This document shows, piece after piece, positions 15,375-60,676 of a DNA stretch of 64,000 nt. Numbering within the stretch: position 1 is the first letter of the stretch; each line of letters starts with the position of its first letter. The notes under the pieces are model-generated. The model was not told the DNA's origin. It searched no databases and worked only from the letters and a program-made list of their open reading frames with translations. The DNA is from Isurus oxyrinchus. Taxonomy: Eukaryota. The DNA lies in assembly GCA_026770705.1 (NCBI GenBank), contig JANJGN010000034.1:6510001-6574000 (forward strand). The letters run 5' to 3'. The translations under genes were made by a program, and so were the position numbers.

Positions 15375-15395
15375 AACTTTCAAAGTACCATGACG
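15375..15395 (+). CDS. Microexon, 21 nt, phase 1-1, (E)LSKYHD
   Basis: tgtgttttctatcgtttctgacag|AACTTTCAAAGTACCATGACG|gtaagc; strong acceptor and donor; exactly one heptad. Confidence 0.8.
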
Positions 15396-17065: not shown

Positions 17066-17071
17066 AACTAG
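17066..17071 (+). CDS. Microexon, 6 nt, phase 1-1, (E)L
   Basis: attttttgttttccctacag|AACTAG|gtaagt; near-consensus acceptor and donor, same AACT start as sister exons. Confidence 0.75.
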   Translation, partial: N

Positions 17072-17599
17072 GTAAGTTTGAAAATGGTGAGAGAAGAACA
17101 CAGTATATTTTGATACGAAACCTTTAGTCCACGACATGGTTGCCATTGATCGGAGAAAACAATTTTACAGGACAACGTCATTTACAAAGGTGCAGAATCA
17201 TTAACCAGCAGTGCAGCGGCTTAATCTTTGATAGCATCAGGAGTAAGAGACGGAAATAGTTATTAATTCTCCACGAAATATTCCCAGTAACAAAATGACG
17301 GTCGATTGGTTTCAATGCACTGATATCTGGCAAGAAGTGCAAACTGACAGGAAGTGTTTACAAGTGGTGCAGAACCCAGGCAATCATTGAGAAAAAAGTG
17401 TGGAATGAAGAAAGACACTAGCTCTTCTGACATATTCACCAAATTCCACAAGACCTATGGAAAAGAAGTGAAGGTCCAGCAACGGAAATAATACTGTGGT
17501 AATTGCAAATACTTCGCCAGGATGGCCACAACCTTATATGTTTCTTGACAATCGCTCCGCCAAGTTTCATAAATTTTACTCCATAGTGTACAGTATGCG

Positions 17600-18339: not shown

Positions 18340-19052
18340 ATCAATATAATATTTTCACCTAGGATTCAAATGGGGAAGTTGAACGAAATGTATTCATCCA
18401 GTTCAGGTTGAGTTGGCAGTTAGGAAGGCATATGCAATTATTTCGATAAGACTTGAATATAAAACCAAGGATGTGCTGCTGAGGCTTTATAAGGCTCTGT
18501 TCAGAGCACATTTAGAATATTGTGAGCAATTTCGAGCCCCGTATCTCAGGAAGGATGTGGTGGCGCAGAAGAAGATGCAGAGGAGGTTCCCGGGAATGAT
18601 CCCAGCAATGAAAGGCTTAACATATGAGGAACGTTTCAGGACTCTGCGTCTATACTCGATGGAGATTAGCAGGATGACGGGGGATCTGTTTGAAACATAC
18701 AGAATACTGAAAGGCCTGCATAGGGTGGAGGTGGGGAAGATATTTACATTTGTAGCAGAGACTAGGACCCGAGGGCACAGCCTCAGAGTAAAGGAAAGAC
18801 CTTGTGCAACTGAGGTGAGGAGAAACCTCTTCAGTCAGAGAGTGGTGATACAATGGAATTCATTGCCACAGAAGGCTGTGGAGCCTTCTGTTTTTAGGAC
18901 AGAGATAGATAGGTTCTTGACTGGTAAGGGGATCAAAGGTTACGGGGAGAAGGCGGGAGAATGGGGTTGAAAAACGTATCAGCTATTATTGAATGGCAGA
19001 GCAGGCTCGATGGGCCAAATGGCCTGATTTCTGCTCCTTTATCTTATGGTCT
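18340..19052 (+). mobile_element. CR1-clade LINE 3' end (best preserved copy; ORF2 C-terminus 18413-18970)
   Basis: LLRLYKALFRAHLEYCEQF, RTRGHSLRVK, VRRNLFSQRVVIQWNSLPQKAVE and GIKGYGEKAGEWG, then 3' UTR ending tcttatggtctt. 5'-truncated. Confidence 0.93.
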
Positions 19053-19079
19053 TACGGTACTATCACGAGGGAAGCTGCA

Positions 19080-28881: not shown

Positions 28882-28917
28882 AACTAAAAGACGTTAAAGA
28901 TAAGCTTAAAGCCAAAG
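28882..28917 (+). CDS. Microexon, 36 nt, phase 1-1, (E)LKDVKDKLKAK
   Basis: ttattttcccttttcag|AACTAAAAGACGTTAAAGATAAGCTTAAAGCCAAAG|gtcaga; 21/36 nt identical to exon 45393-45428, with the same donor. Confidence 0.85.
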
Positions 28918-31328
28918 GTCAGAAGCATAAATGCATCCCATGTTTCATTTGACATTTACATGTTTACCATGAAATCTTCCACGTTATTTTCTCACTGATT
29001 ACTCACGTAAATCTCCCTATACTAAAGACATTACAAGCATTGGGCTAATTTCTCGTGTGCACATTATAGCTTTGATATAGAGGCAATTGAGACTGTGCCA
29101 AAGTGATCTACGGCAGTAATGTCGAACAGGAAATGTTATACTATTCCAAAAAGTTTGGACAATTTTCATTTCTTTATGCAAAAACAATCTGAAGGCGCAG
29201 AACGTACATGACTGGGCAACGATTGCACAGAGATGGAATTTTGTTTCAACCCTCAGTCCACCGGCATGTTCAGACTGTTCTAAATTGTCTCCTTCTGTTA
29301 CTTAATTTTAATTGTTATATTGTTTTGTTTCAAAGTGTAAATGTGCAGTAAATGTAACTTGTAACATAGAAAGTCTGATGTTGCTTATGGAAAATTTCCA
29401 CAAGAGAAGTCAAAAGAAACATGAAGGTGTAGGAAGGACGGTTTGTTCGTCGTTGGTGGTGGTGAATTTAGTTGCTTAGAGAGCTAGCATGCAGATTATA
29501 CTATTCTCAAAAACATGGCCTCGATCCCAATTCAGTGGTTTGGCAAGTGACAGGCAATGAGCTGCTTTTGGGGTGAGAACTGATGAAGAAATATATGATG
29601 ACCAGTAAGGAATGCAACTGAGGATAAAAGAACACAAAAAAGCTACTAAATTGCAGAACTCACTGCCACGTTGCCAGTTTGAGGAAAACACAAGTGTTTA
29701 TTTGAGCAGAACTTGCGTAAATGCATGAGGAAACTAAAGACAAAGTTATGTTCAGATGGTTGAATGACACGATTGGAAAAAAGCCTGAGGTTGAGTGCAG
29801 AAAACGACATAAATTAATTGGCATTTTACTGTGTTACTCTTTCCAAGTAGTTTGTTGGTTGGAAAAAATGCACCACAGGAAACCCCACCACCCGGAAGGA
29901 TATTTGTCTGGTTCGAAGGAAGAATTTGGAATTAAATCACAATGACTTTGCAGTGTGATAGCCTCGTGTTAAGTGAAAAGTTTTAGTTACAAGGAGGATT
30001 GTGAACGACTTCAAGGAACACCAATGTGTCTTGTGCGGTAAGGCAAAATGATGAGTAAGGCTTCAGCTAACTGTTATCGGTGTTCATTGAATACCATTGA
30101 GCTAACTATCGGGAATGCTTCAAATAGGCAGCCGGCTTGATACTACAGATGTTCTGCTATCTTTCAGCATAGATTTCCATTGGCAAATGTAACAGATAGG
30201 CACGCGGTTTTTCAGATATATGCGGAAGCTTCGTCAATAATTCCATATTTTGTTGATTTTTCTTGATACAGTTGGTGGCCTATGCATTTGAGCTCATTCC
30301 AGAAAAAGAGCAAACTGTCCTTTTCTTTCGTGATTCCTTCAAGATGCTCCTTAAAGCATTCCATTCTTTCAATTTTCTTAGGAGTGCAAACATCGCTGAA
30401 AATATGTTTTGAACATCCCTGTTGGACATTACGAATGACAATCCCTATCCTAATATCTTTTTTTTCGAGACATTATTTATATAAGGTGAAAAGGTGATTT
30501 GGAAAGCATAGCTGTTTTTTTCTCAATGGAAAATAATGTGATTTCCATGTTCGTATTTTAAGAATGAAACAATGTTGATAGATCTATATTTTTTTTAAAT
30601 ATTGTCCTGGGTGCTGTTCTTTAAAACGTAAAATTTACTCTCTTTATGTGGTTTCCAGAAAACGTTGTCTGATATCACCAAATTAAAGAGCTTTTGAAAA
30701 TGTGTTGCCTTAAAACGTTCAATTAACGCACGTTTCCACAGCCAGCAAAAATAGTCATTCTTGATTCTGAGGAAGTGTCTTCGCAATGTAATTTCCGTGT
30801 AACAATCATACAAATGCAATTGTTTATTGGTGTGTACGATTGAATTTGTTGTGGGGTGTAATCTGATGCGATCACACTGATTATGATTAAACAAGCATCT
30901 GATGTTCTGAAACCTTTATTAGTGCAGAAATGTTGATGGGTTGTTTGTTTCAAGGCTTTAGGAAATTCAACTGCTCTCATTCACAAATCAAGTTAGATCA
31001 TCAATGATTCAACAAGTGGACGTTAAATTGTTTAGCGGGCAGTATATGCAGCGCGTGTAGGCACTCTAAATCAGTGCAGACCTGACAATGATAATATAAA
31101 AACAAAGTGTGAACAGCTATGCCCTGCCGCTGTTGTATTAATGAATGTGAAGTTATGTATTTACATTATTTGATGCAGAACAAGCACCGCCAGAGAAGAA
31201 CAAACATATGTATACTGCAAAGTCCTTTGCCCCAACTTTCTTCTGAACGTTTGAATAGAATTTAAATGGGATAGAATTTCAGCCTTGTCGCCATGCTTGA
31301 CGGATTGTATTGAAAATCGATATTTCAG

Positions 31329-31355
31329 CTCATGGTGGAATGCATCCAGATGATG
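31329..31355 (+). CDS. Microexon, 27 nt, phase 1-1, (A)HGGMHPDD
   Basis: atcgatatttcag|CTCATGGTGGAATGCATCCAGATGATG|gtaagt; consensus donor, family-typical length. Confidence 0.7.
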
Positions 31356-34300
31356 GTAAGTAGAATGCTCTTGCCTGTAGTTGACTTGGCAGCAGTTTGG
31401 CACTGGTTCAAGAAATGGGCATTATGAAACACCGAGACTGCTTGCAAACAATGGGTGTTTCATAACTAACGAGTTGCTACTTCGAATATTACATCACACC
31501 CAGGGTAGCAATTCCTGCAGCTACAGAGTTTGAAACTGATAGGAAGAAAGACTTACAAAGCATTTCATAGAACTATCACAAACGTCAGCCTGTCCTTTGG
31601 TCTGTGCTAGTGTGCATGCCCACAGGACCATCCGCAGGCCCTGTTTAATTTATTTTCACTGGAACGTGCATCAATCAATTTCCTTCCATCTGCATATCTG
31701 TTTTTTTTTTCCTTAAGCGACTCAATGTTATTGGTCCCAACTACGACAACAGGGGCTGTCTTCAATATTCAGGCAATTTATTATCCCAGGGCGTTTGCTT
31801 GGGAGAATTCTCTTTTGTGAGGAAAATTATATCGCAATGCTCCCTGAATTTCTATGCGATAATTTTGGCAAATTAAAAGTTAATAGGTTATTTTAATCTT
31901 GTTTCAATGCCACACTACCTTTGAGATCCATATACAATCCTTGAGCGATGTTATGGAGGGCTGACTGCAGCCCACATCCAGGCTCAAGGGCATTTTGAGC
32001 ATTTACGGAGCAGTTCAACTGTTACAATCGTATATCGTTTCACTGCACTCTTAAAGATAGTGGTAGTGTCAGCTCTATCACTCTGCCTGAGACACTAGTT
32101 GAGGGCAGAGTAGATACGTGTTCGAGGTATATGCTTTGTCACCTATTCTCCATTCACAATTTTTGGGGTTGGGGTGAAGGATCAAAACAGGTCAGGTTGA
32201 AGAAGGATGATTGTGATGACTTCTGTTGCCAAGAAAGAACAGGCACCGATAGCCGAGCTAAAATTTGACTCCTCTGAATGGTCAGTCGCTGTGAATTGAT
32301 GGCTCTTTGGTTCCACTCAGTCGTCTATGCACCTTTTGAGTGCTGGTGATGAATAATGTTCCTTGCCACTGTGGGGCCTTTTGGGCCATGAAATAAATTT
32401 ACTGTCCAATTTCAGCAAAGAGGACATCAGTGTCCTACAAGTTGCAGCAGGTTAAAACGACATGCGAAATGGAAAGTAAGTCCGCATCTGATACTTTGAT
32501 GGAACTACCAAGGGGGACGTTAAAGGCAGCTGAAATTTTGGTGGCTGCGGGAAGACATGACTCTCAAGCTACGTTTTGCGAGGCCTTTGGTGATGAGTCC
32601 AAAACTGTGTGTGGCCTGCCTGGAGAGTCAAAAGCTATCTTGGTGCTGGGACATTTAGGGATTTACGTACTTTCGGTGGTGTATCCGTTGGTGAAGCTCT
32701 AACTTCTGCTTCCTCCCTGTCCATCTTACGTCCTGATGCTTAGAGTCCCATCTCTGCTGCGGAGTGTGCTGCTTTACATCACTACTGGTCCCAAAAGCTG
32801 TCAGTGGAGACACAATATTAGGCGTATGCTTCAATTTGGACAAGAAACTGTCCACAGTTTTTTTTGGCAGCCTCGGACTTCCGGTTGATAGCAAGTTCAC
32901 TTCTGAGTGCTGAAGGCCCCCTCCCCCAACACATGAAAAAAACACCTGGGATACCTAATTATCAAATATCCTATCACCCTGTGCCACAAAGCCTCCTATT
33001 GTGTCTGCAGAATTATTGAATCAGCTATGCTTTGTTCCTTGATACATTCTTCTCTATCTCATTTATTTTTATTTTCCCACTCTCCGACTTTTCCCAAAGT
33101 CTCATCAAGCACAACAACTAAAAACGAGATCGTGTAATTTTTTAAAGCATTTTTAGGCTAACATTTCGACTGATTTTGCGGCCTCCCGTCTCCTTGGTTA
33201 AAAAATGCCAATGTTGGAAACAACACCGCCAGAATGTTTGCTGCCACGATTCACATTCCTTGCACATTCCATCCCCATTAATTAATTAGCGTGTAAGAGA
33301 AGCCAGGGTCAAGAATAAACATTATCCTTTGTTTGACCTGGTATCTAATTGCAAGGCCTTCAATAAAGCCAAATAGCGTACGCTGCTATAAGAAGAGCTC
33401 AAATCTACCTCATAGATTTTATTCATTTCACTTTTGATGGCATGGCCATTCACCCACCTTCTGTCGGTTACAGTCTCCCTTTGAAATACTTGCTGCCTAT
33501 TCCTGACACCTTTTAGCCATGAATATAGTTTTCACATCCCTGTAATTCACTGAAAATATAATGCCAGGCAGAACTTTTCAAAGCCTTCATAACAATGGGA
33601 CAGGCTATCACTCTTTTCCGTTGAATGAATTACACATTGAATATTCAGTAGTCGATAACGTAATGGATGGATATTTTTTTGTAGATATAGCAAAGGTTGG
33701 GTTGGTTCCGAAGAGTAGAAAGTTAAGTGTAAGAAATGTATGATGATAACTCACACACCTGACAGGTATTTCGGAATTAATTTCTAGAGAAGTTATATTG
33801 TGGATGATGCTACCATATGGATGGAGGGATGGGATGGGTGCAACTTAGCAAAGGATAAATGAGTACAGGAGTCAGCAAAATTGATTATATTTTTACAGCA
33901 AAATGGGATGAGGCCTCAGTACAACATACATGCCAGCTTCCAACCCTACGGAACATTTTTTTTTTCTCGCAGTTTTGCTTGTTCTGCATGATTGGATGTC
34001 ATTGTCTGCCACAACAAGTTGCTCTGGTTAATTCTAATTATGAATGCATGTGCACTCTGCTCTCTGATCGGGCCCTTTTTCGTACAATTAACTCATCTTG
34101 AAAAATCATACACTTGAAACTTAAGGCAGCCACTAAAAATGCCTTTTGCATATAACAATGAATAATTCCGCAGTCGTTGTCATATAAACATTTTATCCTA
34201 CCGCCTGCAAACATAATTACAGTAGAGGAATTCGTTACCAGCATTAAAAATAATTTTCAGCTTCTAATACATCGATTATTAGTTGTTTTTCTTGTACTCG

Positions 34301-36829
34301 CTGATCTAAATTAGCTCCAGGTATGGAAATGCCAGGATTTGACATTCCTTCCTTGACTAATCATCTCGCCATGACCTCCCCCATCCTTTGCATTTCTCTA
34401 AATAGCTATGCTTATACATCTCTCGCATTTCTCACACTCTGGAAGACAAAACATAGCAAAAAGCCAGTTAATGTCAATTGTTTATTCTGGTACTCAAATC
34501 TGGAATTGATTCTCTAAAATTGTTCGATTCTACCTCAGTCGCGTTTTTCGAAATGCTCGTAGAAACCCCTCTCTCTTTCCTGGCCTTATGCCTCCTATTC
34601 TCATGCCTTCGAATCTCTTTCGCTGTCAAATTGTGATAACCCCACTGAGGACTTCCTTGAGAAGTTAAAATGAAAGCTTACACGTATGGATGTTAATGCT
34701 ATTACGGTTTAAATGAAATTAATCATATTGCTGTTTGCCACTTATTCAGAAATTCAGAGACTTCTTCAAAAGAAAAGTACGTATCGTGATCTATGCACCA
34801 ATAATTTTGATTGACTGCAGCATTGTCTAAATCTGATCACTGAGAAACATCGACCTCTTTAACTTCATTTTATCAGTGTTAAAACCAATCAAATGTTCTA
34901 AGTAGCATTCCGGCGCTAGCACACAACGGACAACGATCGCCATTCATGTAACCAGCCTAAAAATGAGTTGTTTGTGCTGATGTCGGATGTGACCATAGAA
35001 CGCATGGTTCCGTTTAGATGTGTTCCTATCCCGACGCTACATGAGCCTTATGCAAAAATTAAAGACAATGTCCTAGAATCATTCCTAATAAAAATAACAA
35101 ATCCATAAGATATTGATGAATTAGGTTTATTTTGAAAGCCAACGTTTCACTGCAGTCTAGAAAACTTTGCGTTTGTCTAATGATGGCAACTGGTATTGTT
35201 TTCACTGCAACTGTAACTTTGTGGGACGCTGCAAAATTAAGTGACAGCGAATTAGCTGCCCTGACTTCAGCAACTCGAGTGACATTCCTATTGAGGAAAA
35301 TATACTGTGCCTACGGCCATTTCTTCTATTTCTGTCACTCCTTCTTACCGGTGCAAACACCAGTAGTCGGTTCGCAGTTTAAGTCAATAGTAAGCAAGAG
35401 GCAATGGCAGCTCGGCGTTTTAAAAGGGTGAAACTGACAGCAGTATCTAGATAATTTATTTTAGCACCTTAGCACGTAAAGAAAGACATCCTGTTTTTCC
35501 ACAGAGGGACATACATCTTAACATTATTTTCATAATCTGGAATGCTGCAGCAAATAGAAACTGAGAAATTTAGACACGAGATCCGCACGGACACTCCTGC
35601 AAGCAGAGTTAAGAGGGTTTGTTATCGCTCAAACACTTTATTCAAACTTACCCAACCTCGGCTTTATTTTGCTCTGCGTACTTTGAAATAGATTAATATC
35701 AAGCACTTTATTTTTCGATTTTTCTAGTTTTAATTTTTCTTTCTGAGTAAATTTTCTCAAAACTGAACAGTTAGGAAGCCGAGCTGCTAACTGATCTGTT
35801 CATGGAAGCCACATGTCCCCCACTCACACATATTCCAGAACTGCTGTATTCAGTGCCACTTGGAAATAGACCAGAAATAAGCGGAGATTTCCAATCACAA
35901 CTCCTCGAACGCCATGCTTGCATCTGTCACCACTGCTAAAAATGTTCATTGTTCTCTTGCCATCATGGGATAATAAATAATTATATATATGCATGTTATT
36001 TAAAAGCGCAGTGCCCATTAAATGGGTAATTAGATGAAAAGTAAATGTAAAACAATATTGGTAAAAATGAGTAAACGTACGAAAGAAGATGTTAGAACAC
36101 GAATTAGGAACAGGAGGATGACATTCAACTCCTCGATCCTGCTTCGCCATTCAATTAGATCATGGCTGACACTTTTGTAGCCTCAACTCTAGGCTCCACC
36201 TGCCCCAGTTCACTTTTTCCCTTTTGTTCGCCAAATTCTACCTACACAACTGATAATATAATGGTGTTGCATTCAACGGCCTCTATGCGAAGAAAGTTCC
36301 AAAGATTCATGACTCGGAGAGGACGAAAAAGATTTGTGATCTCCGTGTTAAGTATGATAGCCCTTGATTTCAAACTGTGACCCCGAGTTCACCTCTCTGC
36401 CACAAATGGACACGATTTCTGCCTCCACGCTCTTAGGTCCCCTCAGGATCTTACATGCTTCAATAATATCATCTCTCGTTCTTCTAAACTCCAACTATTA
36501 CAGACACAGCCTATCCAAACTTTTCCAGTCAGCTAATCACCCTCCCAGCCTCATCCCAACTTTCAGCCAAGTTAATTTTCTCTGCACTGCGTCCAACACA
36601 TTTGTATCACTTACTGAATTAAAATAGCGGCACTGTGCACAGTATTCCACAAGTAGTATCAGCAACGCCTTGTGTAATTGGTACAAATAGGAGAAAAGAA
36701 CACCAGGTGTTTCTGATTGAATTTGATGGAAATGTATTGGAGCACAATAGGAGATATTTATAGCTGTGGAAAATATCCTGTATGCGCTGATTAGCTAACA
36801 TGGTATTCCATATATATATATTTTTTTAG

Positions 36830-36856
36830 TGGAAACACTGGTTGAAAATGAGAAAG
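36830..36856 (+). CDS. Microexon, 27 nt, phase 1-1, (V)ETLVENEK
   Basis: ctaac branch-like motif, then atatttttttag|TGGAAACACTGGTTGAAAATGAGAAAG|gtatgt; 18/27 nt identical to exon 38859-38885. Confidence 0.85.
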
Positions 36857-37917
36857 GTATGTAGCAACAGACAATGTTCATGCATTTACTATGTTTTAAT
36901 CAGGTTGAAAAAGAAGAAACATAGAGACATTAGCAGATCTGTATCACCGTTATGCAAATACAAATTCGAAAGTGATGCAGCAATTGGAATCAAAAGCTGT
37001 TCGTTATATTTCAAAGTGTAACGGAAAATAAACGGGCCAATGTTAAATGGAATCACTGCCAAAATAAAGAGGAACTGGTTATGCCGAAGGCGCAAAATGC
37101 TAAATAAAGGAAGCAGACGTACAGCTGCAACTTTAGCCTGAACCATTTGGATCTAGCGAATTATTTGGGTTGCGTGTTGCATGTGATTTTTTTCATTCTT
37201 TTAGTAAGCACACAATTTAATGGACAACATGTTTTCATATCGTTGGTATGCAGACCTGATTCAATTTCTACAGAGAAATGCAATTTTACATAGTTTAAAT
37301 GTAGTTGATGCTTTCAAGCCCTGTATCTTCAATTAATTATCCAACATAGCTTGAAGTGTGTGCAGCTGCATCTGTAATGTGCAATTGTGAAATGAGTTAT
37401 CATAAATGTAAGAAAATATTTTGGGTAGAGGTTCAGCTTAGGCAATAATAACACAATTTAGGATCAAACGGAGCACAAAAATACATCCGGTTCAATTACA
37501 CCAGTTTATCCCTTACGTGCAGTATGTGATTTGATTGCGTTGACATTTTTTAGCGACATGAGTTTCCTGCAATGGGCATTTAGTCTGGGAGTTGAAGCCA
37601 ACAGTGGAAAATCGACCAATGGTTAACTTCTTAGCCACAGTAAATATTAAATGGCCTTGCAGTTCGGTGAATGGGGATATATTTTTCTTTTCCGTGCGAC
37701 AGCAATTACCAGCACTGAGAATGAGATAATGGTGTATATCCACAGCGTGCAATAGATTGAGTGTTCGTCGGCAATAGATGTTACACATTTCCCTTTATAT
37801 ACTGTCATGACAAAGCTTTGGGGCATATGAAATGTCACCTGTGTCACTTAATGCGTAACTTGACAGATATAGTGTTGTTCGCAATGTTGTTTGTGACGAT
37901 TTAACGTTTCTTTTCAG

Positions 37918-37953
37918 AACTGAAAAGGTGTGAACGTCAGCGGGAGGCAAATG
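37918..37953 (+). CDS. Microexon, 36 nt, phase 1-1, (E)LKRCERQREAN
   Basis: ttaacgtttcttttcag|AACTGAAAAGGTGTGAACGTCAGCGGGAGGCAAATG|gttaga. Confidence 0.82.
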
Positions 37954-38858
37954 GTTAGAGACAACAATTTGTGAAATCTGTATCCTTGTGAATAAAGATG
38001 AAGCGTTGTTGATTTATGACAAGGATCGGATCCTCAAATTTTTGAACGGAGGTCCAAATAGCTCGTCGTAGCTCCCAACTCTACCTTTACACGGCAGCAT
38101 TTGCAATAGTGTATTATTATTATTAAAAAATGAAATCATAGAAATTTAAAACACAGAATGGGACTTCTCGGCCTTTTAGCTTGTTCCAGCTCTTTTCAGC
38201 AGCGATTCAATTAAGCCTACTACTCTCTCTTCACCATTGTTATCCTGTTTCCAAGTAATTAGATGTTCCCTTTTTGGAGTTAAGTGCGACTCATCCCACT
38301 ATCGTTGCATGCAATGAAATCTATACCAGAACAATGGGATATGAAATATACTCTTGCTGATCTTGCGCCTGTTTACTTGTCTTAATTATTGACAAAATGT
38401 GAAGTGTACATTTTCCACACTTTCTATTAAGAAGAAAACAATCGTTATTAGTTCCATTCATTGGCACAAAATTTTCGATGCATCTTCTAATTTGCCCATT
38501 AACGTTTTCACGCCTAAACAGGAAAAAATCACAGTTTCTCCTCTGTCTCAAAGAATGTGAAACCCATTAACGATTGAGACATTCTATTTAAACAGTGTGT
38601 TCTGCTGCATCAATACTCTGTTTTTAAATATCCATCCTAAAAGTCTTAAACTCATTCCCCATCCTCATTCGTTTAAGGGAATCATGAAATCCTCCCTATT
38701 TACTCATTGTTTTGATCATTCGTGTCAATACGCGCTAACATGACTTGAAGCTGAATTTTATATGCCAATTTTCCTGCCAAATCTTTGATATATGCACTCT
38801 GTTAAAAAGGCAGAGAAATGTTTTTATTGACTTATATCTCTGTTAATTTATTTCACAG

Positions 38859-38885
38859 GGGAAGCATTGGAAAAGTGTGAGAAAG
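38859..38885 (+). CDS. Microexon, 27 nt, phase 1-1, (G)EALEKCEK
   Basis: ttaatttatttcacag|GGGAAGCATTGGAAAAGTGTGAGAAAG|gtagga. Confidence 0.85.
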
Positions 38886-39899
38886 GTAGGATTTTATTTA
38901 TTTTCCTTTACAATCTGCAGTACCTGCTTTCATGTCGCTGCTAATTCTCAAATTTGGAGTTAATTTGAAATAATTAACGAGAACGTCGAGCTCGGAAACG
39001 GATATTCACAATATCACGAACTTAATCTGATCATTGTCTCTCTTCCTTTAACCCTACATCCATTTGTCTGCCGCTTTGGAAAGGCATTGGCAGTTTTATG
39101 TTAAGTAAACTCTGTGCGTGGCCCTTGTAGCAAATGAGCTTAAACATAAATTGTATAGAGCTGTACATCATTCCAGTAGTTTTAGATCAGGTTGTAATGG
39201 AAAACCATTAGCTGAATTCACAAAGGCTTAGGAGAAAATGAAATAAGTTGTTTTTTTCCATGAGATGCACGGGAATACATGAAAGAACGTGTTATGCAGT
39301 GGTTGGTAATGACCTATAGCTTTTGCACATAAGGATGGTGGAAACTGAGAGAATTATTTCAAAATGAAATTGAACAGCAGTTGCTTTAAAAGAAAAGCCT
39401 TGCTGAGATAGGGGCATAATATGTTGCTATCCCGATTTTTATTCCGGGAATTTTCTTCACAAATGCCTCCAACATTTTTCACGTCTTTGATTGATTGGAA
39501 AAATTCTTGAAACCTAAATCTATTATCAAACGTTTGTACTTTTTTCTGCTTAACTTGTTAAAATATTTAGGTCTGGCTCACGGTAGTACTTCAGATATTG
39601 TTTTTCCTTCTGCGATGATTGCAGTTAAACTGGAGAAAATGAGTTATATGCAATCAAAAAAAATTGAATTTTCTTACAATTAAAATGTTTGGCCCATTTT
39701 GGCATAAGGCAATGTCAGCAAGAAATATAAGTAAAAAAAAACAGTTGGTGAGATTAGTTACCTGGAGAAGTGGTGATGGTGTGTCGACACTGCTTGCAAC
39801 GAATACAGCTCAGATAATAGTACTGTTAGAGAGTTAGGGTACAATTAATTTTAAAACGTTTAGTCAGTAATTTACAAAGAATTACCGACCCCTGAATTG

Positions 39900-40495
39900 T
39901 TCTTGTAACAAATGTAAGGATATGGCTGGTCCAGTACAGTTTCTGGTCAATGGCGAACGCAAGAATATGGACAGTGGAAGTGTTCAATGATAGTAATGAT
40001 ATTTAGAATCAAGGGGAGAAGCTTAGATGTTCTAGGGTTGTTTGTAGTCATTGCCTGGCCCTAGTGTGATGCGAACATTGTATGACACTTACCAAACAGC
40101 ACTTGCATGTTGCCCAGGGCTTGCTGAGCATGGGCACAAGCTGCCTTAGTCTCTCACGAGTTGCGAATGCTGCTGAACATTTTGAAATTCTCAGCGAACA
40201 ATCCAACTTGCAGCATCCAAAATATTTTGCTTTTATATCCACTTCTGACCTTTGGTGGAAATCATGTTAATGATCAAGCAGAAAAAAGATGTTTGATCCT
40301 AGGACACTGCCCTGAGGAACTGATGCAGTGATGGCCTGGAGCTGAGATGATTCGCCTCCAACAAATGATATCCATCTTCCTCTCCACTAGGTATTGTAAG
40401 GGGCGTGAGAGTCACTTGTGGAGTCTTGCTTATGTTCGGAGTAGCACTCGGAACATAAAAAGAATGAGTGACAATGCCAAGCAATGCGGTCAAAT
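39900..40495 (-). mobile_element. Decayed non-LTR retrotransposon RT fragment (antisense)
   Basis: cctaggacactgccctgaggaactgatgcagtgatg is the reverse complement of ITA.VPQGSVLG. Confidence 0.7.
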
Positions 40496-40681
40496 AGCAT
40501 ATCTATGGTATATTGATAATTATAATAAATACATTAAATTTGACTTGATAACACGGAACAAAAAATAAGAAGAAAGAAAGATAATATTATGAAAAGTTGC
40601 AAACATTTATATATTAGAAGAATGGAAATAAAACAACTCTACTTACACACTTTACATACCACACTATAATGCAAATATATA

Positions 40682-41028
40682 CCGTTGTTCTTCCAGCGCA
40701 AAGAGTTGTCCCCTACCGAGTGTTGCAGACAGGCACATTCCAAAGTCCAGGACTACTTGCAGAGGGACACATCAAAGCTTGGGGCAGCCGGGAAGGGTCG
40801 CTGCATAAGACCTTTCTGACACAGTGCACCGAGGAGCTTGGAATTGTAAAGAGTCCCTCCGCATGTACAGCTCAAAATGAATGTCTGCCAATGATTCTAA
40901 TATTCATTGTTTGTACTGATACACCTTGTGATTCATGTTGTAAAAGTGGAACCTGATTGTATTTTTGTGATGGTGATTTTAAAATGGTTTCAAATGTTGT
41001 TGAAAATTTATGAATAAAGTATATTTTG
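40682..41028 (+). mobile_element. Tx1-like non-LTR retrotransposon 3' end
   Basis: ttccagcgcaaagagttgtcccctaccgagtgttgcagacaggcacattccaaagtccaggactac translates as FQRKELSPTECCRQAHSKVQDY, resembling an elasmobranch Tx1-like ORF2 end. AATAAA at 41013-41018; flanked by GCAAATATATA at 40671-40681 and 41029-41039. Confidence 0.7.
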
Positions 41029-41029
41029 G

Positions 41030-41032
<3 letters not shown>

Positions 41033-41067
<35 letters not shown>
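41033..41067. repeat. (TA)n microsatellite
   Basis: Pure atatat run. Confidence 0.97.
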
Positions 41068-41068
<1 letters not shown>

Positions 41069-41559
41069 CAAACTACAAATGTTATTCCCAAATTGGTCTG
41101 CTCACAACAACTGCCCAAATTGCGTAATGCCATGAAAGGAACATGACTTTGTAAAATTCCCCTTAGAATATACTTTGCCAATTCTCTGAATAACGATAAA
41201 ATAGGTGGTCCCTACTGTCAGTCACTCCATGCCCAGCACTTCCTGCCACAGTCCCCAGTGGCTGATTCTTCCAAACCAGCAGTATCGCAGAGCCCTAGAG
41301 GCAGCGTCCCTTTCAGCCAGCGTTCTGGCTTCATTCCAGTATTTCGGAGTCTGGCCCACATGTTGTCAAAGCAAATTTCAGTCCTTATCAATTCTGCTCA
41401 TAGTCACTGCAAGGTTAAGTTAACTTCGCAACATGAAGTTGTTTACGAAATTTTGATGTTGTCTTTCCATCTATCATCTGTTACTTGTTACATTTTGTTC
41501 TGTGAGACAGTGCAGAGCCTTGTGCTGATTTTCACACTATCTGTTTTCTTATTTTTATC

Positions 41560-41840
41560 CACTAATAGCACCTTCTTTATCCCTTACCACGGCCACTAAC
41601 ACACGTTTGACATCTGTCGATGCCACCTGTATCAATCTCTCCTTAGACCAAACTATCCCTGACCTTCTATCCAGCTTCACCTGCCCCAAACGCCTTAAAC
41701 AGTATCAATGTAATAAAAATTCTACTTATTTTTAGCTCTGAAGATGTGTCATAAGGACTCGAAACTGTAAATAAATTCCTTTGCCCACAGATGCTGCAAA
41801 ACCTATTGTGTTTTTCTAGCATTTGCTGTTTTTATATTGG
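41560..41840 (+). mobile_element. Penelope-like element terminal fragment (older copy) with CTGAAGA...GAAAC motif
   Basis: agctctgaagatgtgtcataaggactcgaaac...cacagatgctgcaaaacct is homologous to 7208-7342. Confidence 0.7.
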
Positions 41841-42149
41841 AAATAACTCGTATTTTTCAGTGGTTGCAAATATACAGTGTTCTGTCAAAGCATCAAGGCA
41901 GCAGCTGTGAATATGCTGAGTAAGAGGAATATTTGATTAAAAAGTCCAATCAGCAGTTAACAATATTAGTGACAATATAATTTACCAAAAGTCAAACAAC
42001 AATCACATCTGGGTTTAGTCAATGTCTACAAAGAGTGATGTTGAATATTACATAAATGTAAAAATTCAATATAGGGTTAAAAGCAAAAGCACTGCAGGAT
42101 TGAACTGCAAAAGTATAACATTGTAATAACTAGAGACTACAGGCTTTAG

Positions 42150-42690
42150 GAATACAGTATGAGTCCCATGAATGCAGAGTTTCATCCTGATACCCAATTA
42201 CTCCTGTTTTGCTAGGGCTGTTTGGTGACATATTCAATGAATGCGGCTCTGATATCCAGGCCAGTCACTCTCGACTCTCCTCTTGGGTTCAGCTCTATTA
42301 TCCATGTTTGCAGCACGGCTTTTGTGAGGTTAGTGGCACTGGCACAACCGTGCTGAGCGTCACTGAGCAGTTTGTTTCTGACTAAGTGGCGCTAAATAGC
42401 ACTGCCCACGACAATTTCCATCGCTTTGCTGATGATCGGGTGTAGGCTGTTGGGAGGTAATTTTCCAGTTTGGTTTTGTACTGTGCTTTGTCGACAGAAG
42501 GTAACTGGGCAGCTTTCCACATTGCCGATATGTTGCTGTGCTGTGACAGGTTGGCTAATAGTGGAGCTAGGTAAAAAGAGCAAGTACTCAGTACTATTTT
42601 TTAAAATTGGTCAGTTACCCTAGCCTTTGCAATATACAGTGCCTTCATCCGTTCTTGACACATGTGGAGTGAATGGAATTGTCTGAAGAG
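42150..42690 (-). mobile_element. Decayed non-LTR retrotransposon RT fragment (antisense)
   Basis: Minus ORF 42392-42583 contains PNSLHPIISKAMEIVV, matching the RT motif RPISLL.IISK.ME.VV. Confidence 0.7.
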
Positions 42691-45129
42691 ATTATTTGTG
42701 ACATCCATAAATTTTAAAATTGTATTTCAACATCATGCTGGGCTGTTATTTTCTTCCTCGTTCAAATTTCTGTTCTTCCTACACGTCTCTTTATTTAGTT
42801 GCCATTTGTCTTTCTTAGTTTTCTCTTAACGTCGTTTCTTCTCTCTGCATCAGCATCTGCCCTCCCTTTTCGCTAATAAACTCTATTTTCCCTATTTGCT
42901 GATAGCAATGAATCTCCCCGCAAAACATTCTGTCAACCCTTTGTGATTGCAGCTTTTAGCCTTATACAACACTGCCTCCAACAGAGCACATCCACGTTTT
43001 GAGTTGGATGGCAATGTATTACTTTCCACCGATACCATTCCAGCTGCCATGCACGCAAAAAGGAGCGGAATTTAAGATTGTCACCTCTGATGCACTACTA
43101 GTTAATAAGTAAATCCCTCTGTCCTTAAACACGTGTTGCAAGGACGCAACTCGTCCACTAATTTCTTATTCTCTGCCAGAACTGTGGGTTGCTCCAATAC
43201 CACTAGCAGGAATGTGTGCACACATTCAAACCTTTCTGTTTGTCCGCCACGTGCTACACTCTTTAGTATACACTCCACCGTGATGTTTGATGACGTCTGC
43301 TGCATTGTCCCCACAAAACTACAAGAACAACCACCCACACCCAACTCCACAGATATCAGTGTATTTGGTAGTGCTCCACATTTGCGTACACTGCATCCTC
43401 TGGGATGCCATTTCGCTTACCGGTATTGAAAGTTGAATTCCAGTTTATGAGGCCATTCAGTTGTTTGCTGCCTTTCTGTTCTTTCTTTTCAGGGCACAAA
43501 AAGTTTTTTTTTTTAATTTCGAGATCCCGCAATTTGCACATATGACAGCTGTCTTTAGCACTGTTTCTGTATTTTCCTCTCTGGGCCTGTCATTTCTTGT
43601 CATATCCTGCACAGTAAGAAAACTGTTTCTTCAAATCGGTGTCTAGTTCTAAGAATATGTTTCAGTTCCGTCCCCCAGGCTGGGATTCCAAAGAAATGAA
43701 GGCCAGAAATTAGAGTTCAAAATTGTTAACCCTCTATCAGGTCAGCCTCCACTCATCTTCAACCAAGAAAGAGTAACGACTTCCTCATGGAAATAACCTT
43801 TTAGTTCCCAGGTGATGTTATTCCCAATATATGCATGACCCAAGTTTGTGATGCCATCTCCACACCTTAAATACAAATTGTGCTTAAGCAAAATTTCATG
43901 TTTCGATTAGATCGGACAGCATATGTTTTGATTACCTCATGTTTAGTGTGGAACACATGTATCCCTGATGACATAATGGTTGGAGATCTTCTGCAACTTT
44001 ACCACGATAATCACAGCAGTGTTTTCCCAAACACTATACCTATTTTTGGAAGCAAAGGGAGAAAAAAAAAACAAAAGCTTGACGCCTTTAAGTACATTGC
44101 GCCTTTTGATCCGAATTCCCGGTGCCAGAAAGGAGTTGGCAGTCAATAAAATACAATGAATTATCTTCACATTTATAAGTTGAAAAAAACATGAGCTTTT
44201 CTGCGCATAGCTAGTCCCAATAGAAATTGGAGATTGATTAGATCATCTATTTTACCGATGCTGGTTGATTATCTACCTAACTTGCAGGGGACAACTCCCC
44301 CCGACCATTTGAAATATTGCATTGGAAAATTGTCGAACCCGTTGAAAGTGTTGTAAATAGAAATAGTGACGTATCAAATCATCCTAAAAGCAACAACAAC
44401 CGCAGGGCCTTCTTTCTTCAGTGCTGTACAGTCTGGCTATTATGCTCATGCCTTTAGAGTGGCCTTTGAAAGAGTGACAGCTGGCCTCTCACTAAGATGA
44501 TATGAAGCTAATTTATTTCGCTCCTTAAAACACACGGGTTGGAATTCAGTGAAAAATAAACTTTTAGCGGAGTGGGCGGCTTGTATTAGTCAGAAATAAA
44601 TTACATTCATGGGTACAGCTTACTCTATGCAACAAAGGCGGGGTAATTTTCACTTTGGACAATTGTACAGAAGGGCGGGTATTTATGTTGTTGCTGCCAG
44701 CTTCAAAAAGCAAGGAGACAATGCAATTGTATAATAGTCTAAACTTTGGATTTTCCTATTTCATATGATTGCTCGAAATTAAATTTTTGCCCGCACCCAT
44801 TGAGCCACGATTTGACGTGTTGAGCGCTAATGCTTGTTAAGTTGTTAATAGTGCATACATCTTTCCATATCACATTATTAAGATGCTCGCACGAGTCCAT
44901 CTTCATCAGGCATCTATCGGTTTATATTAGCAATGCAATTACTGCGCATAGATTCTAAAACACCACTAACAGTGGTGCCCTCTTTAAGCATGAAACCTTA
45001 AAACCGTTCCCTGTCTGCCTCTTCAGTTCGTTGTAAAATATCCCATAATGTCTTTTAGAATGGGCGCCAAAAGTACTGGCGCAGGTCAATGTTTATCCCA
45101 AAAGGAGAAGCAGTAAAAGATTAAAAAAA

Positions 45130-45270
45130 AACGTTCCTGGTGATTGCCATATTACTGTTTGTGGAATACATCTAAATGCACATTGGCTGCTACCTGGGCT
45201 ATTTCATGATATTTACAATACGTCAACCATCATTCGTTGGCTGTAAAACGGGGATGACCCAACTCATTAA
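45130..45270 (+). mobile_element. Deu-domain SINE (SacSINE1/AmnSINE-like) remnant
   Basis: attactgtttgtggaa...cattggctgc...cattcgttggctgtaaaacg resembles the DeuSINE 3' core. Related antisense remnant near 44190-44490. Confidence 0.5.
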
Positions 45271-45392
45271 ATAAATCAATTCACAAATAAAAGTATGTCG
45301 ATCCAATATATTCTGTGTCCTAATTTGAGTAGTTTGAACTCAGGGACTTCTCATTCGGACAAAGAGTACTAGTGATATCAAATTTATTTCAG

Positions 45393-45428
45393 AACTGAAG
45401 GCGTTGAAAGCAAAGTTGAAGGATGCAG
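45393..45428 (+). CDS. Microexon, 36 nt, phase 1-1, (E)LKALKAKLKDA
   Basis: aaatttatttcag|AACTGAAGGCGTTGAAAGCAAAGTTGAAGGATGCAG|gtcaga; L at positions 2, 5 and 9. Confidence 0.85.
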
Positions 45429-45871
45429 GTCAGATAACCAAAAACAGACAACTTTCCAATATCGTTGACTAATTTTATTAAGATGATGTAAAAGATGATT
45501 CGACATACAGAAGTGCAAGGTCACCTTCTATGATAGCTCGAAATTGGCAACATCAAGTCCCCTTTTTAATGTATACATTTCTTCTTGATATTCTTTTGCA
45601 TTAAGTCAAAGGAGATTTGTCAGGCATTGTAAAACTGACTGGCAAACCAAAATGTGCCAGCGCCCATGATGAATTTAAATGCCGTATTATTTATAATACA
45701 CGTGGGCCATCTACCTGATCCCATTCCTGGTTTAGGGTAGGACTTTCGTTTGTATTTTCCTGATTAATGTAACTTGCATTAAGTAGCATTCTGGGTTGAT
45801 ATGTTGTTTAAGAAAATTGGACGGAAATATTGTCAGGAAACGTGTAAAATTTATTGTTTGTGCTTTAACAG

Positions 45872-45898
45872 AGAAAAGGAGTGATGAAGCACAAGCAG
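45872..45898 (+). CDS. Microexon, 27 nt, phase 1-1, (E)KRSDEAQA
   Basis: ttattgtttgtgctttaacag|AGAAAAGGAGTGATGAAGCACAAGCAG|gtaaat. Confidence 0.85.
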
Positions 45899-46034
45899 GT
45901 AAATGGAAATGAGATGGACGACTAATGGCGAGAATTGTTCAAAAGTCTTGTACAGCTGCGTCAATTGACGACATTTTGAACGTAAGCAATTACCTTTTCA
46001 TCCAATGAACGTTGTTGCCCTGTCTCGTTTACAG

Positions 46035-46061
46035 AAGTCCTTGGAAAATGTAAACTGGATG
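46035..46061 (+). CDS. Microexon, 27 nt, phase 1-1, (E)VLGKCKLD
   Basis: ccctgtctcgtttacag|AAGTCCTTGGAAAATGTAAACTGGATG|gtgagt; 136-nt upstream intron. Confidence 0.85.
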
Positions 46062-47794
46062 GTGAGTTAAAATCATCAGTATGCCAATAATTCACTAAAA
46101 TGCAAAATAGACTGACTCTGCATACATTGCAATTAATGCAAACATCTGCAGCATAAAGTTAAAATGAAACGTGCAATCTTCTCTGAGGCGAATTCCCTTT
46201 ATACCTACATTCCATTTTTGTTGCTTTTATATTGCTTGATGCAAATTGGAATTATCATGTCAAGATATTCTTACTCCAACCATTCAGCAAATACATAACC
46301 ACGACTGCCCTATGGCAGCACATCAATCCCCATGGCGTGCTGTCAAACTACAGCTGTCAGAAGTGACGATATTCTGCAATATCCAAAAAAAGGATTCTTG
46401 ACGGCAGGCCAAGTCGCCATTTTCTCATGCTCAACATTATTGAAATACAGTGTGACAAAGATTTTTTCAGCAATATTACCACATTTCCAATTGCAAAATC
46501 TTGAGTATATGTGTTACACCAAAGTGTAATTAATTAAAAGTTTGCCCCGGTAATGTTCACTTCACTTCTGACCCCGGGGCTATTTGGTGTTGCGGGAATA
46601 GTTGGCATTGTAATAACATTTTTTGAGATATTATTGAAAGAAATCTATATCCCCAAGAAATCGATTGCCTATTCTATCAGGTGAACAGGAAGGATCCAAA
46701 TGCATTTCCGCAATTTAAATAAAACAGTAAAGTGACTTCATGCTTTATAATTTGTCGCTAATGAAATACCACCACTGTTGTGCCACATAACATGCGCAAG
46801 TACAGTGGAGAACTATTGATTGGGCAGCAGTTGCCTACATTTCGCTGCTTCTCCAGCATCAATAGATTTCAAAGGAAACTATGCGGTGTTTGCAGAGGGT
46901 GGCCGATTGTCTGCCAACCCTTCATGCCCCACATGAATTGAAATTAAACCCATTGTCTCCAGGGCATTGTCACCGTTGTAATCTTCCGTTGACAGATCCA
47001 GAAACTACCTGACTTCCAAATAAGCAAGCTGTACCTTTTCCAGCATTTCGAACGTTTTATAGCTGAAAAAATTAGCCTCAAGTCACGAGGCTCAAAATTT
47101 TGGATTTCAAGCCTAAACGCCTCCGCTTCCCTTCTGCGTTTTTCCCAATTTCAAACATGGCTGAACACCGACAATATTTCACCTCTTGCATCTTTTTCTA
47201 TGGCTTCTTTTCACAACTTGTTTGATGATTCTCCTTTAAGCTGATGGGGGAATGAAACATTACATTAAATTTTCAGTGTGATTGTGAGTTCTGATTGATT
47301 TTCAAATGGACTGAAAATGGACAGAGCTCCTGCGCAGTCCCAATGTTATTTTATATATTTTTTTAAACAACTTGTTTCAGTATAACTATCGGAACCAAAG
47401 TCACAAGTTGTCTGTGCCTTACATGCAATGAACCAAGGTTTAGTGAGGTCAAACATCACGACGTTGTTGCACTGGGGCTCGTGCCTTAACTCACAACCTA
47501 ATTTTGCTTGTGTCTTGGACGGGGCAACATTGACCCTCTCAAACATTTGGAAACGTACACATAAGCGTCTCTAGGAGTAATAAGCAGCTTATGTGATTGT
47601 GTTTTGTAAATTATATCATATTGGATGCCCATTATAAAGCTGGCTAATGATGTCTAACGCAAGAAGAAAGAGGTGGCATACTGAATGACCAATATAAGAT
47701 GCATAATTGAACCGGCCATTTGGCATTCGTTTCCTCCTTTTTTGTAATGAAAGTATCAGGTAATCTGATGCACTGAACGACCTTCTCTTTGCAG

Positions 47795-47821
47795 AACAAA
47801 GGTTGATTGATCAACTAGCAG
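47795..47821 (+). CDS. Microexon, 27 nt, phase 1-1, (E)QRLIDQLA
   Basis: ccttctctttgcag|AACAAAGGTTGATTGATCAACTAGCAG|gtaaat. Confidence 0.85.
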
Positions 47822-49403
47822 GTAAATAATTGATATACTTATTATTAATCGAATGGCTTGGGAAGTAGTTATAGTTCGATGTCAATGTTAGCAATACTTT
47901 CAACTTGTTCAATTCACCCATTGTGAAAGCTTGTAAAACCAGCAGGAAAGCTGGATCTCTCAGGGCAAATTTTGAGTATGTGGCCTATGGTCTGACGTGA
48001 ATGGCCTCAATTGCACTTTGGAATATTACACATCTTAAGCTTGTGGAACAAATTCAAACATCTTCCCTAGTCCATCCTGACCCGTTGAAGGTTGTGAAGA
48101 TTTCCTGTGGCAGGGTGAAAAGGAAGGCTTTGCCACAGGGACAAGTTGGCTGCTTGCAGTTGGTGATATTTGCAGGCATCCAACCGATTTACAAATGAGA
48201 GATTGAATGAGATTTTGGCCTGTGTGGTGTGTTCCAGTGGAGGCTACAGCGTTGCTGTTTTTCCTTTAATGTCCCATTAGAAAGGGACTACTTTGTTAGC
48301 TGTCAGCTTGCGGTATTAATGAGGAACATGTTTAACCTGAGGACATGAGATGTTTCAATGTGGGCTAGCAGAGGAAGCTAACCTGATCTATGTTAATGTC
48401 AAGGTCCCAGAAATAATCCTCATGGCATCCCAGGTGTCGATATCGGACATGATTTTGTGCCAGCTCCTGAGCCAGATTAGGCAGCAGTCCACTGCTGGTG
48501 CGTGGACTGGGCGAAGTGTTCGTTGGCCCTGTTACTCCAAGTGCTACCAGGCTTTTCCTTATGCATATAACTCAATCGTGGCTCCGACGTTCTGGAGGCG
48601 ATGACTGTGGGTCAATGTAAAGTAAACAGTGATGTCCCAGCACTTTTCCGTGGGATCTCGGGTGATTGTTGATCCACAGAAGGGGATATGACGATAAGCC
48701 CTCGCTTTCTTGTTATTCAGATGGAAGTCTTAAACAACAGTCTTGAGCGTTTCTGGCTAAGTATTTGTTCGGTGAAGCAGAATTTAAGAAAGATACATCT
48801 GCCCTGAATGTTTTATCCATGCACTGAATTTCTTTATTCTGGAAAACCTTGATTAAATCGTCAGTATCAGCAGATAGTGGCATCGTTGCTGGAGGGCGCT
48901 TATATGTTTCTGGCTAAAATAGCTCGTGAGAGTTTGAGGTAAACACACACTTTTCAGCAACTGCCCATGACACTTCTCGCTCGATTTTCAGCTCGATTGA
49001 AATCAATGCACATGAATATCGTGTGGGGAGCAGAACGAGCGAGGCCTCTGATCCAAATTTTTATTCGCAAACAACAAAAACAAATTTTGCTCCATTGATA
49101 TTTCATCTTGTCAATCAAGTGTTCATTTCGAGCCTCATTACATCCTGATCTCTTGATCTGTACAAATCTTGTTGGTTACTAGAGCGGATTGTTGAACAGG
49201 TTCAGGGCATGAGTTTTAGCAGTGTACTCAACAATTCTGTGCTGGAGAACAAGGCCCAGGCATGAGTGTTAAGCATTTCTCGCATCAATTGCCTTGAATG
49301 GAATAATGTTCCATAATCTGATTTATTTTGCAGAAGCGTATAGTGTATGGCGAAATAAGGTTGCGATCAGATGCATAAAAAACGCTTGTCCTTTCCTTTA
49401 TAG

Positions 49404-49439
49404 AAAATCGCAGGCTCAGAGATGAGCTGAAAGAAAAAG
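49404..49439 (+). CDS. Microexon, 36 nt, phase 1-1, (E)NRRLRDELKEK
   Basis: cttgtcctttcctttatag|AAAATCGCAGGCTCAGAGATGAGCTGAAAGAAAAAG|gttagc. Confidence 0.85.
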
Positions 49440-51044
49440 GTTAGCATCAGAAAATTGATTTCGGTTCAAAGACTCCAACGGATTGCTGTTCCTAATTGTC
49501 CATTGCACTTGTGCCTGTGTCTAATTGAATAATAATAATAACAACAACAATATTTCATTTAATATACTATATGAACTGTCAGTTCGATACTCATTTCTCA
49601 AGGCCTGTAAGGAACGGAAGACTGGGACTAGCTTGCAGCTAATATCTGTGAGGTCATTAGTTAAATGTCTCAGGGGGGTGGGGGCGTGGAAACTATTCTA
49701 ATTGATTGGATACATTTGTTTCAATGTTTGAAACTATTTATTAGCTTTGGAGTATATATCGACCGTTCTACTGGGTGAAAAGTTAGGATAATAAATAACA
49801 AATACAAGAAGAACTCAGTAGAAAAAAATATATTTACAGATAGACTGGTGGTAATGTGGAATCTGTAGTTCAAGAATAAGTAGAATCTTCATGAATATAT
49901 GCTCGTCAGTTAAAAATAATGTGCTGAATATAATTAAATGACTATGGAATTCGAAAAACTAGAGTGTGAGAAGCATCAGATAAACAAAAAGAAACAGAAA
50001 TATGGGGCAAATGACCTGTTTTTGACCCATAACCCTTTTCTGTGTGTAATCCTCGTTTAGAGCTGGTAGATTACACATAGGTTGAGCATATCTCAGCGTA
50101 TCAAAGCCCTTCTTATTGTGTTTATTAATAACATATCATGCATACATAAATTTAAATGTTTCAATTATCCTTAAATTGCTGCATACGTTATTCAGTTTAC
50201 AAAATGCTGGGTAGATGTATTTGGAAATTGTATTGTATAGGGCAACTAAATAAAAATAAATATTTTAATATCCATAAGGGTATAAGGCAAAGAAGCACAC
50301 GCTGTTGAATCTAATGCACATTAATATGACATGGCGGATACACAGCGGCAGATGCTGTACCGCTTATATTGCATATTACCCATTCCTCTTTGTACCATAG
50401 CTCCTGTACTCCTGGTCCGCATTGTTCACTTCCTTGTGCGTGACACGAATATAAACAGATTGCACTAGGTCCTTGTGTTTTCAAATTGATGGAAACAAAC
50501 ACGGCTCTAATAAATTGATAGCCGTCATTTGCTATATAAGAGCAGCCGAGAAGATGATTGAATAATTTCGAAAAAACAGTGATTAGATGCGAGCCCGTTC
50601 CACGCAATTGACAAAGTAATTTGGCAGGTAACCCCATGACACCTACAAACAAGCCAGTAATCAGTGCTCGCCTATAGATAGCAAGGTTGGATCAGCTATG
50701 CTTAACAGCAATTCCGTGCTCTCCCACCGATTGAATTTAATTTACATATGGAAATTCAACAGGTTGTTGAGCCGTCAACCGCATGAAGCTCAGATCAGGA
50801 CTAATGCATTCCAGCTGCCTTCTATTCTGTACATTCTCACGATGCAACGTGTTGGTCAGCTTTGTTCAACATTGGCTGCTGTCGCGCAACAGCACTACTC
50901 TGACAGAAGAGTCACTCCTGCATATGATACAGAAGAGGGCAGCTGGGTAAGACGGTACACACTTTGCCTGCCTTGGTTTGTTTCACATCCCCCAGCCAAC
51001 ACCACACCCACCCCACCCCCACGAACATCGTCCTTTCTGACCAG

Positions 51045-51068
51045 CTAGTCAGCAAACAAAAGTCTACG
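51045..51068 (+). CDS. Candidate microexon, 24 nt, phase 1-1, (A)SQQTKVY
   Basis: tcgtcctttctgaccag|CTAGTCAGCAAACAAAAGTCTACG|gtgagt. Confidence 0.5.
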
Positions 51069-60649: not shown

Positions 60650-60676
60650 ACGGCAAGATGAAAGCGAAAGATGAAG
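60650..60676 (+). CDS. Microexon, 27 nt, phase 1-1, (D)GKMKAKDE
   Basis: ttactgcttgttattgattacag|ACGGCAAGATGAAAGCGAAAGATGAAG|gtaatg; family-typical length and charged content. Confidence 0.75.

Follow-up and report, generated by a model that had tools for sequence, protein, structure and literature searches.

A slice of a megabase micro-exon gene of cartilaginous fish, likely encoding a long coiled-coil rod with a B30.2 end

Results

The window analysed here, a 64,000-nt stretch of Isurus oxyrinchus DNA (C34:6510001-6574000, where C34 is contig JANJGN010000034.1; coordinates without this prefix are window positions), appears to be a slice near the front of a cartilaginous-fish gene of ~1 Mb. 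The gene is under purifying selection, and from the DNA we consider it quite probable that it encodes a very long coiled-coil rod, which apparently ends in a B30.2 domain, and that it grew by the copying of exon blocks in steps that keep the heptad register.

Extent of the gene and its probable terminal exon

In the 664 kb around the window, at least 135 micro-exons were called on the plus strand versus 1 on the minus strand. A collinear tandem paralog (hereafter gene B), located 1.09 Mb upstream, spans 1.5 Mb, is ~78-80% identical to the window gene over more than 500 kb, and carries at least 246 plus-strand micro-exons versus 3 on the minus strand in the 1.3 Mb covered, with a further ~290 kb outside that coverage. 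Both counts come from a model of splice sites and composition, for which 65 exon pairs of the locus served as training set and which overlooks weak exons.

The gene B array terminates at a phase-1 SPRY exon, whose nearest match in the genome (4.98 Gb) is found at C34:7496442-7496959, 92% identical and open for 172 codons. We infer this B30.2 exon to be the end of the window gene, 421 kb beyond the last exon read, so that the butyrophilin arrangement of heptad micro-exons followed by a C-terminal B30.2 would be present here, with the join drawn from DNA. Three further related B30.2 exons were detected at C34:4.82, 3.47, and 2.71 Mb, and the acceptors are phase 1 in all. For 40001-50000, no RNA data set was listed as matching. 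Contigs from four sequencing runs guessed to be RNA (at most two samples) covered only repeats over 34000-50000, and none fell on the B30.2 exon. Between gene B and the window gene, at C34:6.416 Mb, there is a broken frame resembling a rhodopsin-family GPCR (Pfam 7tm_1, E 8.5e-5, below cut-off).

Micro-exons in the window

Using gene B as a filter, at least 14 phase-1 micro-exons were recognized in the window; these are listed below, together with one uncertain exon and a repeat.

15375..15395, plus strand: 21-nt phase-1 one-heptad exon; counterpart at C34:5226893 in gene B; absent from the earlier list
17066..17086, plus strand: 21-nt phase-1 one-heptad exon; counterpart at C34:5228577 in gene B; absent from the earlier list
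18408..19058, no strand: dispersed repeat fragment at the junction of a ~205-kb deletion; 9 matches across the 1.96 Mb covered
28882..28917, plus strand: 36-nt exon of 12 codons, opens the first 39-aa block; 0.94 identity to the paralog
31329..31355, plus strand: 27-nt exon, Gly/Pro, non-helical look, lowest score of the set; 0.93 identity, splice sites kept
34750..34776, plus strand: 27-nt exon, absent from the earlier list; 0.89 identity to the paralog
36830..36856, plus strand: 27-nt exon; 0.89 identity to the paralog
37918..37953, plus strand: 36-nt exon, opens the single 21-aa block of the window; 0.86 identity to the paralog
38859..38885, plus strand: 27-nt exon; 0.85 identity to the paralog
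45393..45428, plus strand: 36-nt exon, opens the second 39-aa block; 0.92 identity to the paralog
45872..45898, plus strand: 27-nt exon; 0.93 identity to the paralog
46035..46061, plus strand: 27-nt exon, KCKxD class, absent from the earlier list; 0.93 identity to the paralog
47795..47821, plus strand: 27-nt exon, QRL class; 0.96 identity to the paralog
49404..49439, plus strand: 36-nt exon; 0.86 identity to the paralog
51045..51068, plus strand: uncertain 24-nt exon, 30 nt in gene B
60650..60676, plus strand: 27-nt exon past the span described earlier; 0.93 identity; the array continues past the window end

From 15375 to 49439 the exon order is 21, 21, 36, 27, 27, 27, 36, 27, 36, 27, 27, 27, and 36 nt, and the part from 28882 onward (36-27-27-27-36-27-36-27-27-27-36) gives intervals of 39, 21, and 39 aa between 36-nt exons. 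The eight exons named in the original prediction were correctly placed, each flanked by an AG acceptor and a GT donor and open in phase 1, but that list was incomplete, since three 27-nt exons within its span had been overlooked (31329, 34750, and 46035), which are 0.89-0.93 identical in gene B with their splice sites kept. Outside that span, the 27-nt exon at 60650 and the 21-nt exons at 15375 and 17066 were added. Exon candidates at 42293 and 42314 were ruled out, being closed in phase 1. The segment 31718-31886 is 0.87 identical to the paralog and has AG/GT ends, but does not fit the phase-1 symmetric pattern, and could be a conserved non-coding element. At 27674-27695, ~5.8 kb of the paralog is missing, including one 27-nt exon (C34:5445462); this difference is a single 9-aa exon lost or gained between selected copies.

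Front of the gene and large deletions

The window gene and gene B have 22 kb of 5' flank in common, including a 30-nt exon, after which the window gene lacks ~241 kb of gene B. A second absence, of ~205 kb of the gene B array (C34:5.230-5.435 Mb), falls at window positions 18.4-19.1 kb. The most 5' exon found lies at C34:6452560; it measures 30 nt, is phase 1, shows 0.97 identity between the two genes, and carries an in-frame ATG close to its end. Both upstream paralogs have a 111-nt front exon (C34:4005537 and C34:4859457), which opens on four hydrophobic residues, the last of them Ala, and which the window gene lacks.

A first coding exon was not found upstream of the array, nor a signal exon at the gene front, and the front candidates included no convincing hydrophobic exon that could be a transmembrane exon. 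Likewise, scans of 141 and 146 plus-strand ORFs, located between the respective gene and the neighbour upstream of it, gave no Ig or RING match (141/194 ORFs in one set). Two start candidates were rejected: an ATG-G|GT at C34:6449974, common to both copies, sits in a repeat that we take to be a SINE and has repeat matches, and gene B lacks any counterpart of the hydrophobic ATG exon at C34:6421428.

Selection on the two copies

In the window gene, all 94 gene B exons compared (94/94) retain their splice dinucleotides (AG and GT) as well as their length and frame, against background values of 66% for AG and 60% for GT; the chance of this outcome, had the copies been neutral since duplication, is ~1e-19. 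In the reverse direction, 86/89 window-gene exons are intact in gene B, the other 3/89 having apparently defective counterparts. Over 89 exons dN/dS was 0.40, with a dS of 0.205 equal to the intron divergence (0.209), and the 12 window exons of 27 or 36 nt were identical to the paralog at 326/360 positions (91%) versus 81% for non-exon DNA. Moreover, Cys was identical between the paralogs at 44/45 positions, compared with 72-78% or lower for K/E/D/A (p=8e-5) and 88% for Leu (p=0.06), and 36/44 Cys fall at predicted d positions. By these measures both paralogs are under purifying selection, and the window gene is still selected despite its ~241-kb and ~205-kb internal deletions.

Likeness among window exons

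The resemblances reported in the original prediction were reproduced against composition-matched shuffles, with exons 28882 and 45393 identical at 21/36 positions (p=0.0011) and exons 36830 and 38859 at 18/27 (p=0.00045). When all pairs were considered, likeness was evident among 36-nt exons (4/6 pairs at p<0.05), but not generally among 27-nt exons (only 2/28 pairs at p<0.01). The residue columns L,L,R,L,L,L and N,C,N,C,L,A across 36830-45428 were exact. The GT(C/T)AG donor described for the 36-nt exons of the window is present in 4/4, and also in 4/4 of their paralog counterparts, versus 2/44 of the 36-nt exons elsewhere in the window gene (p=8e-5); this local trait points to local common descent. 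Residual duplication of intron sequence, a check named in the same prediction, was not apparent, as flanks of the 12 window exons scored a mean of 16.0 versus 15.3 for random sequence, with no likeness above random.

Coiled-coil register and duplicated blocks

Growth of the array by exon duplication is supported, as is its coding for a coiled coil, the latter as a prediction from hydrophobic periodicity. Hydrophobic a/d periodicity was near 3.5, with Fourier peaks of 3.49-3.54 that 0-1/300 shuffles reached in the shuffle-tested zones. Across the 11 exons at 28882-49439 the period was 3.54, not 3.5 (1/300 shuffles as high), and a further zone of 39-aa blocks, at +130-163 kb, gave the same value, while the 21-aa zone gave 3.505 and a 112-aa block of gene B gave 3.49. 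The predicted core positions run a-d-a-d in a 36-nt exon (codons 1, 4, 8, and 11 after the split codon) and a-d in the next 27-nt exon.

Among 124 conserved exons (versus 2 in the minus-strand control), 25 of the 47 intervals between 36-nt exons contain one 27-nt exon, 6 contain two, 5 contain three, 4 are without any, and 7 show other patterns, counts that are approximate because the exon caller misses weak exons. Adjacent 36-36 exons numbered 5 versus 19 in shuffles. The 9+12-aa pair that had been put forward as the duplicated unit is thus the commonest spacing gene-wide, but it accounts for only 1/3 complete window intervals, the two others being 12+9+9+9, and a lone 27+36 pair was not found among the duplicated blocks seen.

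Recently duplicated blocks are larger. At C34:7.012-7.061 Mb, seven copies of a 6.9-kb block each carry 36+27+36+27 nt, equal to 42 aa, with 28/28 exons intact. In gene B, the exons of a 28-kb block (six of 27 nt, four of 36 nt, and two of 15 nt) amount to 112 aa or 16 heptads; 12/12 of its exons are kept in 8/8 other copies, and it holds 27-27 neighbours as well as the 15-nt exons. The claim that duplication keeps register therefore stands for these recent blocks, which are whole heptads, a rule resting on two block types (42 and 112 aa) and hence on a small sample. It does not stand for the dominant window block of 39 aa, which is five heptads plus four residues and shifts the register by 4, a stutter; correspondingly, the register starts of the four window 36-nt exons are 0, 4, 4, and 1 modulo 7. 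Stutters are described among the best understood coiled-coil discontinuities (PMC4786415, in part).

Relatives and known systems

In a quick midpoint-rooted tree, from which isoform duplicates, unlabelled rows without a RING or Ig motif, and rows >800 aa were left out, 16 B30.2 rows from chimaera, skate, electric ray, and sharks, including two C21 exons, formed a clade on a long stem (SH-aLRT 100). The 57 rows outside it are mostly RING- or Ig-bearing, with BTN and TRIM rows intermixed. Those C21 exons, at 89.72 and 91.35 Mb, lie in a large B30.2 cluster. The automatic RefSeq/GenBank models of the clade (among them XP_055510696 from skate, XP_038672308 from catshark, XP_069775385 from Narcine, and XP_042191567 from chimaera) consist of coil and SPRY only, and no Ig, RING, or B-box was found in the models of these relatives. 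Their database names (TRIM39/58/69-like or A33-like) rest on the B30.2 alone.

Clade models range from 175 to 945 aa, far below the length expected for the window gene; a profile search for longer B30.2 proteins (up to 2000 aa) returned 18, two of them from the clade, with 945 aa as the longest clade model. This catshark model (P0166) also has the KCKSD motif. A lead only comes from a protein atlas, where a cluster of 137 members has SPRY (score 0.84) and is represented by a 1,579-aa protein. Internal gaps in the 12 chimaera, catshark, and Narcine isoform records, all automatic models, were of 9 aa in 4, 7 aa in 1, and 6 aa in 1, and none was of 21 aa. Single-sequence AlphaFold2 modelling of the skate protein P0152 gave two long helices with the B30.2 unfolded (mean pLDDT 45).

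Butyrophilins resemble the window gene in having heptad micro-exons before a phase-1 B30.2 exon, and BTN3A1 is the nearest solved B30.2 (PDB 4n7i, E 6e-20), with TRIM58 scoring about the same. However, BTN combine IgV-IgC-TM with few heptads, whereas no Ig was found upstream of either array or in clade relatives, and the B30.2 of the window gene belongs to a separate cartilaginous-fish clade. TRIM proteins such as TRIM58 and TRIM21 share the coiled coil and B30.2, but their N-terminal RING and B-box were seen neither in the relatives nor at the window-gene locus. Enterophilin is a possible precedent for coil plus B30.2.

Chicken BG genes have an IgV and a transmembrane region, no B30.2, and 13-36 exons of 21 (18, 24) nt (PMC5938342, PMC4046983, and PMC8813856, in part). 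The window gene and gene B differ in that their exons, mostly of 27/36 nt, number in the hundreds across 1-1.5 Mb and lead to a B30.2 end, with no Ig or membrane exon found. The original contrast with the 7-aa BG unit was nevertheless overdrawn, because the window gene also carries 21-nt one-heptad exons. No description of this family was encountered in the literature searched, which comprised few subscription journals and no supplements and included parts of PMC12841164 and PMC8813856.

Discussion

We propose that exon blocks would be added or removed when the large introns undergo unequal crossing-over or suffer deletions. Since the exons are all multiples of 3 and phase 1-1, a block can be gained or lost without a frameshift, and selection on the protein would retain blocks of whole heptads, as in the 21-nt exons and the blocks of 42 and 112 aa, or would tolerate a single stutter, as in the 39-aa block. 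Intronic recombination of in-frame exon blocks has been proposed for chicken BG genes (PMC4046983 and PMC5938342, in part). The product may be a parallel coiled-coil oligomer of ~2,500 residues (extrapolated), ~370 nm long if continuous, with the rod acting as a spacer or tether that would hold several B30.2 heads together. By analogy, this rod could do what the inner tail does in a butyrophilin/BG receptor, but free of the Ig and membrane parts, as in a BG-derived zipper protein. The design is a variant of the BG/butyrophilin-tail plan, and the 21-aa module is a detail of the window gene, not a new principle.

We lean slightly towards a cytosolic product. Secretion of the same product, as an extracellular fibre of disulfide-stitched coiled coils that carries B30.2 heads, is possible but doubtful: it would suit the conserved Cys and their d positions, the signal-like hydrophobic stretch that starts a skate relative of the same subclade, and the hydrophobic opening of the 111-nt exon in both neighbouring paralogs; yet a signal-like start occurs in 1/7 relative models, the other six being without, the window gene has neither the 111-nt exon nor a detectable signal exon at its front, and the tails of chicken BG have conserved Cys although they are cytoplasmic (PMC5938342, in part). 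Could the array instead belong, as the tail, to a genuine membrane butyrophilin/BG gene, its Ig and transmembrane exons having been overlooked? The 21-nt heptad exons, the phase-1 B30.2 exon, and the match to BTN3A1 are of that kind, but the upstream ORFs scanned gave no Ig or RING match, TRIM58 scores about as well as BTN3A1, and the clade stands apart from Ig-bearing B30.2, making this very unlikely.

It is also unlikely that the array repeats one fixed 27+36 pair, with both exons included or left out as a unit so that length is adjusted in register. Although 9+12 is the commonest spacing (25/47), alternation is near-strict in the 3' zone, and the 42-aa block equals two such pairs, the window blocks of 39, 21, and 39 aa and the 15-nt exons and 27-27 neighbours of the 112-aa block do not conform, and automatic isoform models of relatives drop single 9-aa blocks, never 21 aa. 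Least probable of all is that segmental duplication and two large deletions left a decaying pseudogene here. Two large parts of the paralog are indeed missing, including the 111-nt front exon, the start exon was not found, and very recent inactivation is compatible with the DNA; still, the 94/94 intact exons and the open terminal exon argue against a pseudogene.

More broadly, and as a rather speculative proposal, the cluster might comprise shark megabase genes of up to ~300 micro-exons each, which would encode secreted, disulfide-stitched, B30.2-tipped fibres of several hundred nm whose length evolves in register-preserving steps only. If the secreted-fibre reading were true, the inner tail of a butyrophilin would have been turned into extracellular material. 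If transcribed as one unit, the window gene would be among the most exon-rich vertebrate genes; titin has 363 exons. Such a gene is easily overlooked by annotation because its exons are 15-36 nt long. Furthermore, an old B30.2 lineage, from chimaera to sharks, was identified, whose members are labelled TRIM E3 ligases in databases though without RING.

The locus also offers a natural experiment in coiled-coil lengthening, in which duplicated blocks can be read from introns and their lengths tested modulo 7. An internal duplication with 16-kb spacing and 70% identity was observed at C34:6.472-6.494 Mb, in the 21-nt exon zone, where 21-nt exons are probably under-counted because few exons were called there. 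At C34:6.84-6.855 Mb (+330-345 kb), an older 8-kb tandem duplication with 69-73% identity is present in both paralogs.
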